DNA of 22,628 nucleotides from an uncultured Methanosarcinales archaeon (GTDB lineage: Archaea > Nanobdellota > Nanobdellia > Woesearchaeales > ARS49), in NCBI GenBank assembly GCA_964637115.1, contig CAZWVL010000012.1, forward strand, positions 1 to 22,628. The letters run 5' to 3'. The notes beneath the pieces were generated by a model. The model searched no databases, was not told the origin of the DNA, and saw nothing but the letters and a program-made list of their open reading frames with translations. Both the position numbers and the translations under genes were made by a program. This document shows, piece after piece, positions 1,158 through 15,092 of this stretch (the stretch's first letter is position 1; the number at the start of each line of letters is the position of its first letter).

Positions 1158-2318
1158 TCACCACGTCGCCACCAATTCCGCTTCTTTTTTCAGAATTATT
1201 GCCTTATCCGTTTGTTCCCACGGTAAATCTTCCTTTCCGAAGTGTCCGTAGCAGCTTGTTTTGCGGTAAATCGGCTTTTTCAGTTGGAAAAAGTCAATAA
1301 TCTGCTTTGGCTTGATTGGAAAATGCTTGTAAACCAAATCTACAATCGTTTCTTCGCTCACTTTTCCAGTTCCAAAAGTGTTTACGTTTATGCTGACAGG
1401 CGCCGCAACACCTATTGCATACGCCAATTGCACCTCGCACTTGTCCGCTAATCCAGCCGCAACAATATTCTTGGCAATATATCGTGCTGCATATGCCGCG
1501 CTTCTGTCTACTTTGCTTGCATCCTTGCCTGAGAATGCTCCGCCGCCGTGTCTGCCAGCTCCGCCATACGTGTCAACAATAATTTTTCTTCCAGTTACTC
1601 CAGCATCTGCATATGGACCGCCTCTTACAAACTTTCCAGTCGGATTTGTAAGAATTTTGCTGTTTGCATCCAGCCAGTTGCTGACAACTGGCGTTATGAC
1701 TTTTGCAATAACGTCCTTGCGTAATGTATCCTGGTCTATTCCTTCGTCGTGCTGTGATGAAACAAGCACTGTATCGACCCTAATTGGCTTGTGATTCTCA
1801 TATTCTACTGTTACTTGAGTTTTTCCATCTGGTCCTAGATATGGTATCACTCCTGCTTTTCTTGCATACGCTAATCTTTGTGCTAATCTGTGCGCTAGAA
1901 GAATAGGCAGGGGCAGGAGTTCAGGTGTTTCATTGCTGGCAAAGCCAAACATGAGTCCTTGGTCTCCTGCTCCCTGCTCTTTTGTTGTTGAGGCATCGAC
2001 ACCTTGTGCTATGTCTGGTGATTGTTTTTCAAGATGAACTAGAACTGCGCAAGTGTCTGCATCTATGCCATAACTGGACTTTGTATAACCGATTTCTTTC
2101 AGCACAGTGCGCGCAATTGTCGGAATGTCAAGCTGTGCTCTTGTCGTGATTTCTCCTGCTACAACAATCATTCCTGTTTTTGTTAAACATTCAACTGCCA
2201 CTCTGCTGTCCGCGTCTTGTTGCAAACAAGCATCAAGTACTGCATCACTCACTTGGTCGCATATTTTGTCAGGATGACCTTCTGTTACCGATTCTGATGT
2301 AAATAGTGTTCGTACCAT
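1158..2318 (-). CDS. metK: S-adenosylmethionine synthetase, bacterial/eukaryotic type
   Basis: Motifs [32 protein letters not shown]. Start moved from GTG 2324 to ATG 2318, which has SD GAGGTGA 6 nt upstream. Confidence 0.97.
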
Positions 2319-2377
2319 CTTCACTCACCTCTTTTGCCGTTATTTCATATGTCCGCTTAAATAAACTCTTGACAGAA

Positions 2378-11298: not shown

Positions 11299-12408
11299 AT
11301 GTCTATGAGAGGTGTAACCGCAGTAATAGCGCTTTCTTTGATGCTGCTCTCTGGCTGTTCGTTCATAGACTGGGTTGTGGGCGGCGTTGAAGGTATGTTT
11401 TGTCCTTTCTTTGGCGATGAAACCGAGGATCATTGTTATCAGGACGCTGCCGTTCGTCAGGCCGATTCAGATGATTGTGCAAAAATAAAGGCAGAGGGCT
11501 TTACAGAAGCACAGGGTCCTGCTCCGCGTGACAAGTGTTATTTGCGTATTGCAGAGAAAACAGGCGATCCCGAGCCCTGCGATAAGATTGAGGGCGGCGC
11601 GATTAGTTACACAATACAGGAATGTATGTACCTTGCTGCGCTAAAATCAGGAGATGTTTCGATTTGTGAGAAAATTGTTGGATCATCATCGAGTATGTTC
11701 AGAGGTACGTTCAGCAAGGAAACGTGCTTGAAGAACATCACACCAAAAGAACAGCCCGAGGAAGAGGAAGAAGAAACAGAGGAAGAACCTGTAAAGGGTG
11801 AATGCAAGTATGACAGCGACTGCAAGAGTTTGTGTGAAGCTAACATTATGTGGAAACAGGGCTGCAATGCTCGTACAAACAAATGTGAGAAGACTTTTGA
11901 TTACAACTGCGCTGAGCAGTCTGATACTATTCAGGATCATGCCGAGCCGAGGATTTGTTTGAATGGCGCCTGTATTTTTAACAAGAATGCATTCCTTAAC
12001 TATCGTCAGCAACTGAGCACAGAGGCAAAAGGACTCCTGCAGGAGAAGCAGGAGTTGACTGCATTGATGCTTGAAGTTAACAAGAACTGCATCAATGGAA
12101 TTGCTGATGTCACAAATAAACTTATTATTGATACTGCGCAGCTTGCAGCCACGGCGTTAGCACCGGCCGCTGGAATATCAAAAAGGCTGAATGAGTTCAT
12201 TGGAGAGGGTGTTGTGCAGCTTATTGAGGAAATCAAGGCAAGTCCTCCGATGAAAACAAAACCAGAGGATTATATTGCATTGAACTGCAATCTGTATAAG
12301 CAAATTGGTGATGAACTTCCAAAGATTGACGCAGAAATAAAACAGATTCATGATAAAGCGCAGAATCTTGAGGCTGATATTATCTTGAAGAGCTTTGAGC
12401 AGAAGTAA
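11299..12408 (+). CDS. Secreted lipoprotein with Cys-rich repeats and a C-terminal helical hairpin
   Basis: Signal peptide with lipobox LLSG-C20. Three C-x13-C repeats (C46/60, C80/94, C109/123), a poly-Glu linker and 19 Cys in total. Confidence 0.8.
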   Translation: MSMRGVTAVIALSLMLLSGCSFIDWVVGGVEGMFCPFFGDETEDHCYQDAAVRQADSDDCAKIKAEGFTEAQGPAPRDKCYLRIAEKTGDPEPCDKIEGGAISYTIQECMYLAALKSGDVSICEKIVGSSSSMFRGTFSKETCLKNITPKEQPEEEEEETEEEPVKGECKYDSDCKSLCEANIMWKQGCNARTNKCEKTFDYNCAEQSDTIQDHAEPRICLNGACIFNKNAFLNYRQQLSTEAKGLLQEKQELTALMLEVNKNCINGIADVTNKLIIDTAQLAATALAPAAGISKRLNEFIGEGVVQLIEEIKASPPMKTKPEDYIALNCNLYKQIGDELPKIDAEIKQIHDKAQNLEADIILKSFEQK

Positions 12409-12412
12409 TCTT

Positions 12413-14218
12413 CTATACGGCTTCAATATAATGTCTGAAGCGTTCTATTAGGAAAGATGATTTTTTGATAATCTTGTCAAGGCAGTCCTTTCTTACAAAG
12501 AATCTTACTGAGACTGCCTGCTTTCGTGCTTCTTCAAGTAACGCATGTTGCATGTGCGGGTGCATATCTTCAAGAAGTCTGATTGGAGGTCCTTGTTTTC
12601 TGTAAACCCAAGTATCGTCTATTTTCAGTTTGCTGAGCTTTCCTCCGTGTGCGATGAGTATGTCTAATGGTTCCAGGCCTGCATCTTCGCATAATTTTTC
12701 TTCAAGTGTTTTTCTTTCTCGTACTGGAATTTCGAGGAATTTTGCATATTCCTCTTCTGTGATAGCATCAACTTTAATTTCGGATTCTTCAAGTATTTCT
12801 GAGTCTTTCAGGCGCATGCTGGCAAGGCATCTGTACGCATTTTTTACAATTCCATCTCCGCCCAGTTTTTTCAGTTCCTTATTGCCCTGTTGTTCAGCAA
12901 GTATGTTGTGATGGTCATACCATAAATCGTTGAACCTTTGCCATTCTTCGGGCAAGGCGCCGGAATCAATGCCTATTTGTCCAAGAAGGGTGAATAATCT
13001 TTGGCTGAGTCTTGTGTACGGGCTGAAGTAGGTGTTTGCATAAGTTGTGTGGTATAGCAGGATTTGTTTGAATGCGCTTTCTGATGCAAATTGGTCAATT
13101 CCCAGTTTGCCGTTTTCGTAAACGGTATGGCGGAGAAGTAAGTCAATGTTGTCATACCCGCCTTTTCCTGTGGCAATGCCGTCGCGGAGCAAATAAGCCA
13201 GTTTGTCCGTACCAAGCACTTTATCGCTTACAATTGCGTGTAAAGGATTCTTTTTGTCAAAGAACTCGACGAGTTTTTCCAGGTTGATGTCGCATTCTTC
13301 AAGCGCTTTTGCAAAGCTTTCTTCGGAAATTATTTTTTTTGCTGCCTCAGTCTGGTTGAGTTTTGATATTTCTTCCAGTTCGTGGCTGTATGGAGTGTGG
13401 CCGATGTCGTGCAGCAGTGCGTAAGCAAGCACGTGTCGTTTTTCTTCTTCGCTTAAGCGCAGATGTCCTAGCATGTCATGCGCGAATTTGAACGTCAGAA
13501 CAGAGTGTGCATATCTGGTGTGTGTTGCGTCAGGATATTCCCAGAAGAGTGCTCCAAGTTGTTTCACTTCGCGCAGTCTGCGCATTAGTGGATGGTCGAT
13601 TATTGCTTTGAATCTGGTAAGGTCTACCGTATAATTGGGAGTTATTGTTTCAAAGTGTTCTTCCGTGCCTGGTGGGAGTAATTTTCTGCCGATGATGGGG
13701 TCTTCATGCACATACCATCCTTTGACTTTGTTGTCGATGTGAGTGGCTATTTGTTCCAAGGTTTGTTCCCTTTTGCCGTAAAAAATTTTATGACAGCTTT
13801 TTGCAACCATTAGGTTTCTGTCGTAGTACGGGTCTATGAAATAGCCGTTTTCGTCTACAAACAAGTCTCCTTTTTTTGTTGCAGGGCCGTATTTGGTCAG
13901 CGGGTCTTCTTTTTTGTCTTTATATCCGAGAATTACTGCTCCAAGGCCCATGCCTAGTTCTACAGATGTGCCATCATCGGTGCATTTGCCCCGGAAATCG
14001 TTGATGTCTGCTACGATAACGTGGCAGCTTCTCGCGTCTTCTTTGCAGGCATTGTAGATTTTTTCAGGATCTCCTAGAATACTGTGTCGTGCTGGATGTA
14101 GAACTTGGAATTCGTGTTTTCTGCCCCATTCTTCTGCAAATGCGCGGTCGTCTATGTTTGTGTTAAAGACTTCAGGTCCTGCAAAATAGACGATTGGCTC
14201 TTCAATAATGCGGAGCAT
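12413..14218 (-). CDS. Fusion: nucleoside 2-deoxyribosyltransferase-like domain + SAMHD1-like HD phosphohydrolase (dNTP triphosphohydrolase family)
   Basis: N-terminal VYFAGP...DDGTSVELG...NLMV (NDT/RCL/MilB motifs). C-terminal RRLREVKQLG, HTRYAHS, LLHDIGHTPYSH, DKLAYLLRD. Confidence 0.85.
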   Translation of the reverse strand: MLRIIEEPIVYFAGPEVFNTNIDDRAFAEEWGRKHEFQVLHPARHSILGDPEKIYNACKEDARSCHVIVADINDFRGKCTDDGTSVELGMGLGAVILGYKDKKEDPLTKYGPATKKGDLFVDENGYFIDPYYDRNLMVAKSCHKIFYGKREQTLEQIATHIDNKVKGWYVHEDPIIGRKLLPPGTEEHFETITPNYTVDLTRFKAIIDHPLMRRLREVKQLGALFWEYPDATHTRYAHSVLTFKFAHDMLGHLRLSEEEKRHVLAYALLHDIGHTPYSHELEEISKLNQTEAAKKIISEESFAKALEECDINLEKLVEFFDKKNPLHAIVSDKVLGTDKLAYLLRDGIATGKGGYDNIDLLLRHTVYENGKLGIDQFASESAFKQILLYHTTYANTYFSPYTRLSQRLFTLLGQIGIDSGALPEEWQRFNDLWYDHHNILAEQQGNKELKKLGGDGIVKNAYRCLASMRLKDSEILEESEIKVDAITEEEYAKFLEIPVRERKTLEEKLCEDAGLEPLDILIAHGGKLSKLKIDDTWVYRKQGPPIRLLEDMHPHMQHALLEEARKQAVSVRFFVRKDCLDKIIKKSSFLIERFRHYIEAV

Positions 14219-14220
14219 CT

Positions 14221-14967
14221 TCAGTCGTTTTCGACTCGTGGTGCTAGAATGAAGCTCAAAAGCAGTTTGTCAACAATTTTGTATTCGAGCTTCAGTGGAT
14301 AGTCTTGGTTGAAGAATATCGAGACCTCATTTGCCAGTTTGCCTGCATTCATCATTTTTTTCAAATATTCTATTGAATATTTTGCCTTGATTTTTGCAGG
14401 GCTTTCGCTCTTGATTTTCGTATCTTCACTATTTTTAATTTCAATATGCGCCTTGCTTAAGTCTCCTTCTGCTGAGATTGTGAACTTTTCAGGCTCTACT
14501 GCAAGGGTTACGCTTTCTGCAACAATATCCGCATCTGATATGGCATCGTTCAGCACAGTGCTTGTTGTGCTGATTATTATTGGAAAAGTCAGGTTTGGCA
14601 CTCTTTGTTCTTTTTCTTCAAGTTCTATTAATGGCAGGCTGAACGTTCTTGTCGTGCCGCCTTTTAGCTGTATTTGCAGCTTGTTTTCTCCTGTGAGTTC
14701 AAGTGTGAGGATGTCGCTTGCTCCCACTCTGCGCAGGATTTGCTTGAAGTTTGCCAGATTAACTGCTATTTCCTGTTCTTTTTCCACGTCATATTCAGTG
14801 AAACTGCTCGAAAGAAGTTTGAAAATGACCATTGCGACATTTGCGGGGTCCATGGCTATTAATTCAAGGCCGTCTCTTGTTATCTTGAAGCGTGCTTCGT
14901 TGACTAGGTCTGAGATGACTGAAATGCTGTCTTTTAGTAATGTTGGATCCGCTAATACAAGCCTCAT
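14221..14967 (-). CDS. pcn: DNA polymerase sliding clamp (PCNA)
   Basis: 248 aa; AMDPANVAMV, YSIEYL, YPLKLEY, FILAPRVEND C-terminus; SD-like AGGGGGT. Confidence 0.97.
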   Translation of the reverse strand: MRLVLADPTLLKDSISVISDLVNEARFKITRDGLELIAMDPANVAMVIFKLLSSSFTEYDVEKEQEIAVNLANFKQILRRVGASDILTLELTGENKLQIQLKGGTTRTFSLPLIELEEKEQRVPNLTFPIIISTTSTVLNDAISDADIVAESVTLAVEPEKFTISAEGDLSKAHIEIKNSEDTKIKSESPAKIKAKYSIEYLKKMMNAGKLANEVSIFFNQDYPLKLEYKIVDKLLLSFILAPRVEND

Positions 14968-15049
14968 TTTATACCCCCCTGATAAAAATTCGAGTGCTCG
15001 ATATTTAAATGCTTTATTGTGATGGAGTAGTTACAACCGTGGGGGTTGA

Positions 15050-15074
15050 AGGGGGACGGCGGTTGAGTCCCCCT
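15050..15074. other. GC-rich stem-loop between rnj and pcn (terminator, processing site or small repeat)
   Basis: AGGGGGAC (15050-15057) and GTCCCCCT (15067-15074) form an 8-bp stem with a 9-nt loop. Confidence 0.45.
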
Positions 15075-15092
15075 GAATATGGTTGCGTTAGC

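Follow-up and report, generated by a model that had tools for sequence, protein, structure and literature searches.

What would a cell gain from joining a deoxyribosyltransferase to an enzyme of the type that hydrolyses deoxynucleoside triphosphates (dNTPs), and from placing the gene directly behind that of its replication clamp? The question is raised by contig CAZWVL010000012.1 (assembly GCA_964637115.1) of an uncultured Methanosarcinales archaeon (GTDB lineage Woesearchaeales, ARS49). The whole stretch of 22,628 nucleotides was analyzed and is referred to here as the window. On its minus strand the gene of the sliding clamp PCNA is followed by a gene, here named NDT-HD, which encodes an N-terminal nucleoside 2'-deoxyribosyltransferase (NDT) domain and a SAMHD1-like HD domain. 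In animals, dNTPases of the SAMHD1 type play a central part in dNTP homeostasis, in genome stability and in antiviral restriction, and their prokaryotic roles are known mainly through anti-phage dGTPases.

In the present study we established the gene, both folds, the conservation of the catalytic residues and the structure of the operon, as well as the distribution of the fusion and its origin in a single event. As to function, we see about an even chance that NDT-HD is a bifunctional deoxynucleotide-breakdown enzyme which is co-expressed with PCNA and drains the dNTP pool in one direction around replication.

The NDT-HD gene

A preliminary description of the window, made from the sequence alone, had claimed a single unbroken open reading frame (ORF) of 601 amino acids. 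This ORF was recovered at 12413-14218, and the strand, which had been left unstated, is the minus strand. The gene and its parts are:

12413..14218, minus strand: NDT-HD fusion gene, 601 amino acids plus stop codon, uninterrupted ORF; its ATG lies 2 nt past the PCNA stop codon (GAC TGA AG ATG)
13724..14218, minus strand: NDT domain of the TbPDT/LmPDT type, amino acids 1-165, assigned by PF05014, by the profile comparison with the PDB and by the model
13619..13723, minus strand: beta-strand linker, amino acids 166-200, including HEDPxxGxKLLxP, conserved across the fused family
12416..13618, minus strand: SAMHD1/EF1143-type HD dNTP triphosphohydrolase core and C-terminal lobe, amino acids 201-601, assigned by PDB, Foldseek and PADLOC matches

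All motifs quoted previously were located. These were VYFAGPEVF (amino acids 10-18), DDGTSVELG (81-89), RNLMV (134-138) and MRRLR (212-216), as well as HTRYAHS (233-239), HDIGH (270-274) and DKLAY (338-342) in the HD part. The proposed division into an NDT and a SAMHD1-like HD domain was supported for each domain by Pfam, by PDB sequence matches and by fold matches. In the Pfam analysis of the protein, PF05014 (Nuc_deoxyrib_tr) matched amino acids 10-105 with 41.5 bits (cut-off 28.8; 43.9 bits in the whole-genome scan) and PF01966 (HD) matched amino acids 235-304 with 34.3 bits (cut-off 22). PDB sequence matches of the HD part were 2HEK, 2Q14 and EF1143/2O6I (E 1e-14 to 1e-16) and human SAMHD1 (1e-7), and those of the N-terminal domain were the deoxyribosyltransferases 6QAI and 2A0K (E about 1e-5). 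The full-length model reached a pLDDT of 82 and a pTM of 0.82.

A search of 5.8 billion protein clusters yielded about 16 full-length fused homologues with 54-78% identity, in addition to fragments. An assembly artefact could be ruled out, because these homologues come from independent assemblies and share the conserved linker. Some of them carry the automated label 'HD superfamily phosphohydrolase/nucleoside 2-deoxyribosyltransferase'. No paper was found that combines a deoxyribosyltransferase with a dNTPase, a triphosphohydrolase or an HD domain, in agreement with the earlier impression that such a fusion had not been characterised. NDT-HD is a genuine gene, and it encodes a rare, uncharacterised fusion.

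The N-terminal NDT domain

The AF2 model of amino acids 1-185, built with 46 aligned sequences, had a pLDDT of 94.4. The best Foldseek matches of the domain were 2A0K (T. brucei NDRT; TM 0.77, rmsd 2.7) and 6QAI (L. mexicana PDT; TM 0.81), which together with the model confirmed the flavodoxin-like NDT fold on which the first assignment had been made to depend. The trypanosomatid PDTs were followed by bacterial NDTs, and DNPH1 and MilB matched far more weakly (E 1e-4 to 1e-3 versus 1e-8 for TbPDT). The same two structures were found when the profile of the subfamily was compared with the PDB (2A0K, E 2e-41; 6QAI, E 5e-38).

Active-site residues were mapped onto LmPDT by means of a published active-site description (bioRxiv 10.1101/2024.11.29.626018) and a hidden Markov model (HMM) alignment. 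The positions, with the LmPDT residue first, are:

Tyr8, positions the nucleophile: Y11, invariant
Phe15: F18, invariant
Asp79, sugar-binding: D81, invariant
Thr82: T84, invariant
Glu85, nucleophile: Glu87 (codon 13958..13960, minus strand), predicted nucleophile in DxGTxxExG, invariant (46/46 aligned sequences)
Glu121, general acid supplied by the partner subunit: D129, with E in 13/14 homologues
Asn128, sugar-binding: N135, invariant
Met130: M137, invariant
Asp43, active site: Arg44 (codon 14087..14089, minus strand), invariant in the archaeal clade

The domain thus resembles TbPDT and LmPDT in fold, in sequence subfamily and in the motifs YxAGPxVF, FRG, DxGTxxExG and NLM, and it has the nucleophilic Glu, the sugar-binding Asp and Asn and the general acid of these enzymes. 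Because its modelled fold and its aligned catalytic residues match, it is by these features a genuine member of the PDT-like subfamily of NDTs. By analogy it probably dimerises as its homologues do, with two active-site residues contributed by the neighbouring subunit.

Several features are different. The domain forms the N-terminal third of a 601-amino-acid protein, so that its C-terminus is not free, and the EDFG motif reads ExxxD. Additionally, Asp43 and Asn56 of LmPDT are replaced by the invariant residues R44 and C58. Both of the latter were also present in the stand-alone sister NDTs of archaea (L011 and P0061 for Arg44). Cys at the Asn56 position is a minority state among natural NDTs (4.6%) and alters the sugar selectivity when engineered into LmPDT (bioRxiv 10.1101/2024.11.29.626018).

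The relationship to the nucleotide N-glycosidases of the PF05014 superfamily, namely DNPH1/Rcl, MilB and BcmB, is more distant. These enzymes share the fold at lower similarity and the double-displacement mechanism with a nucleophilic Glu, but they act on 5'-monophosphates, and the similarity of our domain to them is much weaker than to PDTs. DNPH1 has a phosphate-binding Ser six residues before the nucleophile. At this position NDT-HD carries Asp81, the state of nucleoside-type NDTs, and with the weak fold match the domain does not belong to the DNPH1/Rcl type.

A second NDT-like ORF of 135 amino acids was found on another contig of the genome (L022:1405-1812, contig C3 of G000). It matched PF05014 very weakly, with 21 bits, below the cut-off.

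The linker and the HD dNTPase part

In the linker, residues H171, D173, G177, K179, L180, L181 and P183 are invariant, and the model places strands at 169-173, 177-181, 189-192 and 196-199. From about amino acid 170 to the end, the full-length model was aligned by Foldseek with the EF1143 entries 4LRL and 3IRH (E 4e-12, TM 0.67, about 460 columns), followed by SAMHD1 entries; therefore, the complete dNTPase core and the C-terminal lobe are present. The protein shares with SAMHD1, EF1143, Aquifex 2HEK and BT4208 the fold over both of these parts, the primary metal ligands and the catalytic His. Key positions, mapped with the residue roles described for SAMHD1 (PMC7311409), are:

13571..13585, minus strand: MRRLR, amino acids 212-216, in place of FQRLR; specific to the fused family
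13505-13507, minus strand: H238, primary metal ligand (SAMHD1 H167), invariant
13406..13411, minus strand: His270-Asp271, HD metal-binding dyad (SAMHD1 H206/D207), invariant
13352..13354, minus strand: Gln289, invariant in the fused family; His233 in SAMHD1
13205-13207, minus strand: D338, primary metal ligand (SAMHD1 D311) in the motif DxD[KR]xDY; D in 11/14 and E in 3/14 sequences

Furthermore, the catalytic and substrate residues R235 (R164 in SAMHD1), H274 (H210), H279 (H215) and E282 (D218) are kept and invariant, as are K339, Y342 and D346, which fit the motif DxD[KR]xDY...RD (D346 corresponds to SAMHD1 D319).

The HD ligands had been described as apparently intact. This holds for the four primary ligands but not for the second-metal ligand, since the equivalent of His233 is the invariant Gln289. 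His occupies this position in SAMHD1, EF1143 and 2HEK and throughout the more distant HD-only relatives. In SAMHD1, His233 is a ligand of Mg3, and the exchange H233A lowers kcat about 300-fold (PMC7311409). The activity of the Gln289 variant is nevertheless plausible, because Gln can ligate Mg2+. Another replacement specific to the fused family is Ala341, which precedes the conserved Tyr of the DY motif where the wider family typically has Asp. The HD-only protein P0020, a member of the same subfamily, carries Leu at the position of Gln289.

The change from FQRLR to MRRLR, pointed out before at a position that is allosteric in SAMHD1, was borne out as well: FQRLR is the norm among HD-only relatives and MRRLR is particular to the fused family. 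Allosteric site 1 of SAMHD1 (D137, Q142, R145) is not kept, with D, E, A or N at the position of D137 and Arg213 in place of Q142, and with R145 retained as R216; this site is peculiar to SAMHD1 and is no defining feature of the dNTPase family at large. NDT-HD also differs from SAMHD1 in having an NDT domain at the N-terminus instead of the SAM domain, and in its PCNA operon.

The two family-specific replacements, His to Gln and Asp to Ala, and the altered allosteric residues might be read as signs that one domain is no longer catalytic and that the HD or the NDT part serves as a deoxynucleotide- or deoxynucleoside-binding regulator of the other. We regard this as highly improbable. Both domains keep their primary catalytic residues without exception in sequences which are only 54% identical overall, the glutamine could still hold a metal, and binding alone would not call for the conservation of Glu87, of Asn135 and of an acid at position 129.

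Association with PCNA

Whether the neighbourhood of NDT-HD resembles a defence island or a set of replication genes was an issue raised by the preliminary description. The answer lies on the side of replication and housekeeping, with a conserved adjacency to PCNA. The elements upstream of NDT-HD are:

14221..14967, minus strand: PCNA sliding clamp, 248 amino acids, leading the two-gene unit; Pfam PCNA_N and PCNA_C, NCBIfam DNA polymerase sliding clamp (E 1e-58)
14974..14979, minus strand: GGGGGG, Shine-Dalgarno-like run before PCNA; GGGG is kept in 6/6 aligned loci
15002..15020, minus strand: ACAATAAAGCATTTAAATA, conserved archaeal BRE/TATA-like element, a putative promoter, situated about 38 nt ahead of the start codon of PCNA

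The core of ACAATAAAGCATTTAAATA is invariant across the PCNA upstream regions of six relatives, one of which has no fusion gene. PCNA itself shows 83-94% identity among the relatives from the genus. Because the two genes are separated by 2 nt, too little for a promoter, and the conserved element lies upstream of PCNA, both should share one transcript. PCNA followed by NDT-HD was found in six distinct loci, including L015 with different wider flanks and L016, in which an ORF of 144 amino acids without a Pfam match lies between PCNA and NDT-HD and overlaps both (L016:2803-3237).

The pairing extends beyond the fused proteins. The HD-only protein P0020 (L037:3246-5275, GCA_023269535.1; 44% identity) is encoded directly after PCNA with a gap of 11 nt, and P0017 (57% identity), an HD-only protein of the same HD subfamily, also follows immediately after PCNA, whereas HD-only relatives with 26-27% identity are not placed there. 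The pairing of PCNA and dNTPase is therefore a property of the HD subfamily and independent of the NDT domain. No paper on an archaeal PCNA-dNTPase operon was found in the literature searched. This link is the strongest contextual clue to the function of NDT-HD and the most informative new fact.

As regards a physical contact, a canonical PIP box (Qxx[LIM]xx[FY][FY]) was not seen by eye in the family alignment. A complex prediction for PCNA and the full-length fusion protein returned a score of 0.00, which gives no verdict and counts neither for nor against an interaction.

In a second archaeal lineage, the fused L010 and the stand-alone NDTs L011 and P0061 are located directly downstream of a MazG-like pyrophosphatase, near Kae1, so that MazG and NDT form a conserved pair. 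The pyrophosphatase comprises 219-257 amino acids and lies immediately upstream of the NDT gene (L010:7214-7987, L011:4620-5300 and the P0061 contig). A malic-enzyme gene adjoins the fused L041 and the stand-alone NDT L035.

Further features of the window

Three further observations were made in the window. A GC-rich hairpin (GGGGGAC...GTCCCCC; 15045-15075, minus strand) lies between the RNase J gene, just past its stop codon, and the putative promoter of PCNA and is probably the terminator of RNase J. Between the fusion gene and UbiA, an ORF of 369 amino acids (11299-12408, plus strand) has no Pfam or NCBIfam match. It adjoins PCNA in the genomes G011 and G003 and is missing from G009, G013 and others, which represents a second insertion or deletion at the same spot. 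Finally, the S-adenosylmethionine synthetase at 1158-2324 (minus strand) is of the bacterial/eukaryotic MetK type (PF00438, PF02772, PF02773). Archaea usually carry their own archaeal type of this enzyme, and the gene was possibly acquired horizontally.

Distribution and origin of the fusion

Besides the search for full-length homologues, the profile of the N-terminal domain was compared with 1.84 billion representatives at 50% identity, which gave 1126 NDT matches. Among the best 150 of these 1126, fusion to an HD domain was found in one cluster only, that of the fused family itself. The remainder of the best 150 were stand-alone NDTs of 160-190 amino acids or tandem NDTs, with one fused to a Lar domain. 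A word-based search restricted to the N-terminal domain found the same fused family only, and nothing further was obtained from the ESM Atlas. A metagenome scan added only L041 (fused, 60% identity) and L042. The latter is a 38%-identical copy of the fusion split over several frames (L042:620-2439) on a contig of 2979 bp, and represents either a pseudogene or a low-quality assembly.

Within the genus, 3 of 15 genomes carried the fused gene. One of the 15 genomes counted, G010, is unpublished; it lacks the gene, and no positive claim rests on it. The gene was not found in 26 other relatives, and in a sample of 401 genomes from the class it was present in two. Where members of the genus lack it, the next gene directly follows PCNA and no remnant is left.

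In the tree of the N-terminal domain the fused domains were monophyletic (98/96) and sister to stand-alone archaeal NDTs. In the tree of the HD domain the HD-only P0020 was basal and the HD-only P0017 was nested within the fused clade. Since P0017 is nested in this way and still has the linker at its N-terminus, its NDT domain was evidently lost secondarily. Together with the pattern of gene absence, the trees indicate that the fusion was gained once, followed by at least one loss of the NDT domain and many losses of the whole gene.

In two genus members without the fusion, proteins of about 782 amino acids with a SAMHD1-like HD domain at amino acids 385-470 were found (L004:817-3165 in G011 and L006:460-2817 in G012). 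Their N-terminal 380 amino acids match no Pfam family.

Such a patchy accessory distribution, with presence and absence at one site, would suit an antiviral effector in which the HD domain, in the manner of SAMHD1 and of the dGTPases of bacterial defence, starves viral DNA synthesis and the NDT domain destroys the deoxynucleosides, so that viral kinases cannot phosphorylate them again. The occurrence of different large HD proteins in other genus members points in the same direction, as does a PADLOC match of the fusion protein to dGTPase, which is partial and weak (E 1e-7, 29.7 bits, amino acids 194-283). Moreover, an NDT-like domain is already in use for defence in the effector of retron Ec86/Eco1, where it acts as a dimer and destroys nucleotide-related metabolites. 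That system differs in its reverse transcriptase and msDNA, in depleting NAD+ or adenine derivatives and in having neither an HD domain nor a link to PCNA, and its effector was not among the sequence or fold matches of NDT-HD.

However, the gene is always surrounded by core genes (RNase J, PCNA, UbiA and Hef) and lies in neither a mobile element nor a defence island. No defence genes or integrases were seen near it by Pfam, NCBIfam, PADLOC or inspection of the neighbourhood, and PADLOC gave nothing for the two neighbouring ORFs that were run. The probable co-transcription with an essential replication gene, in the absence of a sensor or regulator partner, the apparently vertical inheritance with losses and the lack of a homologue in viral contigs likewise argue against an immune role. 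With NDT-HD coupled so closely and so consistently to PCNA, the context speaks for replication and not for a defence island, and we consider the antiviral explanation doubtful.

Metabolic background

The small genome (G000; 98% complete, 1.27 Mb) encodes two large subunits of ribonucleotide reductase (RNR), ThyA, thymidylate kinase, cytidylate kinase and two deaminase-domain proteins, including a domain of the dCMP-deaminase type. The cell can make dNTPs de novo. Thymidine kinase, deoxynucleoside kinase, a PNP-family phosphorylase (PNP_UDP_1), dUTPase, ThyX, NrdD and DeoC were not found in this genome. The only matches to PF01712 were considered as deoxynucleoside kinases and rejected, as they proved to be cytidylate and thymidylate kinases. 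Across the 15 genomes of the genus, DeoC was found in one and not in the other 14, MazG in only two, and dUTPase (PF00692) in none. A single Pribosyltran match was obtained in G000 and none in G009.

The lack of dUTPase and the scarcity of MazG direct attention to the removal of modified nucleotides, one of the roles proposed in the preliminary description. NDT-HD would then dephosphorylate aberrant dNTPs (dUTP, dITP, oxidised or modified ones) and remove the bad base ahead of the replisome, uniting a house-cleaning NTPase with a sanitiser of the DNPH1 kind, for which co-expression with PCNA would be suitable. The position of the fused and stand-alone NDTs of the second lineage directly behind a MazG-like pyrophosphatase also fits. 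In DNPH1, a sanitiser of the nucleotide pool, the positively charged R30 and H56 stabilise the anionic leaving base (PMC12751057), and the loop with the invariant Arg44 and His45 could act in a similar manner. On the other hand, 12 of the 15 genus genomes have neither the fusion gene nor dUTPase, so that the fusion is not the general answer of the lineage to dUTP. On these grounds an essential role as dUTP sanitiser is unlikely and one as a replacement of dUTPase is rejected, as most relatives are also without the fusion gene. No specificity determinant for an aberrant base was identified, and Asp81, six positions ahead of the nucleophile, speaks for nucleosides rather than nucleotides as substrates. 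Overall, we rate a sanitising function as unlikely.

The preliminary description had also proposed that the enzyme rebalances or salvages the dNTP pool. In this case a surplus dNTP would be dephosphorylated, its base swapped by the NDT domain for a scarce one, and the product phosphorylated again. The closest solved relatives of the N-terminal domain, TbPDT and LmPDT, are indeed true transferases for the interconversion of deoxynucleosides. T. brucei offers a parallel, since SAMHD1 orthologues (HD52/HD82) and a PDT-type NDT occur there in the deoxynucleotide metabolism of one organism, and HD52 has a metabolic and not an immune role, feeding a biosynthetic route from dCTP to dTTP (PMC10208901). 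The trypanosomal proteins are, however, separate, with no physical or genetic coupling reported, and the pathway needs a thymidine kinase. Neither this enzyme nor any other route from a base-swapped deoxynucleoside back to the dNTP was found in our genome, which has its own RNR and ThyA route. In addition, each cycle would waste three phosphoanhydride-equivalent bonds. With no visible way to re-use deoxynucleosides, this role is weakened to the point of being the least supported of the three that had been proposed, and we judge it very unlikely.

Proposed function of NDT-HD

For the one-way drain around replication that we favour, the following course is proposed; the activity of each domain, the order of the two steps and the way they are coupled, like the role in the cell, are inferred. 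The HD domain would hydrolyse a dNTP to the deoxynucleoside and triphosphate. In the NDT domain, presumed to be dimeric, Glu87 would attack C1' of the freed deoxynucleoside, by analogy with solved NDTs. The base would leave, and the deoxyribosyl-enzyme intermediate would be resolved either through hydrolysis by water or through transfer to another base. The net result would be an irreversible drain of dNTPs which limits or resets the pool around replication, in step with PCNA. That the drain runs one way appears most likely, because no recycling kinase or phosphorylase was found in the genome. The NDT fusion would be an accessory and dispensable refinement of an older pair of PCNA and HD-dNTPase.

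The preliminary description had suggested a two-step channelled enzyme. Two sequential steps would be reasonable, because both catalytic sets are conserved; the notion of channelling gained no support.

A number of points weigh against the proposed drain. A pure drain has no obvious need for an NDT domain, and some relatives consist of the HD part only. The low frequency of the gene in genus and class and its clean absence at the site show that it is dispensable, and such a pattern is typical of defence genes too. Due to the exchange of the second-metal His for Gln289 and of Asp for Ala341, the dNTPase may be slow, differently metallated or chemically altered. Arg44 and Cys58 are unlike the residues of characterised purine transferases, which makes the substrate and the outcome of the reaction uncertain. 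Finally, the absence of recycling kinases refers to searches with two Pfam families, and the genome searched is 98% complete.

Significance

The fusion is a new arrangement of two well-studied enzyme families. The locus hard-wires a SAMHD1-like enzyme genetically to the replication clamp, and the fusion argues for further processing of the deoxynucleoside product by an NDT, a step outside current schemes of dNTP catabolism. The protein combines a natural His to Gln variant of the second metal site with an NDT that carries Arg and Cys at positions of selectivity engineering, which is of relevance to enzymologists and to users of NDTs for the synthesis of nucleoside drugs. If its role were immune, NDT-HD would be a new single-protein effector of nucleotide depletion in archaea.

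On a wider scale, and tentatively, as we think it possible rather than probable, the operon may be the prokaryotic equivalent of the link that joins SAMHD1 to the replication cycle in eukaryotes. The fusion would add to it a previously unrecognised, irreversible two-step route from dNTP via the deoxynucleoside to the free base, and together with the pairs of MazG and NDT it may represent a widespread module of deoxynucleotide destruction which serves replication control, immunity or both.

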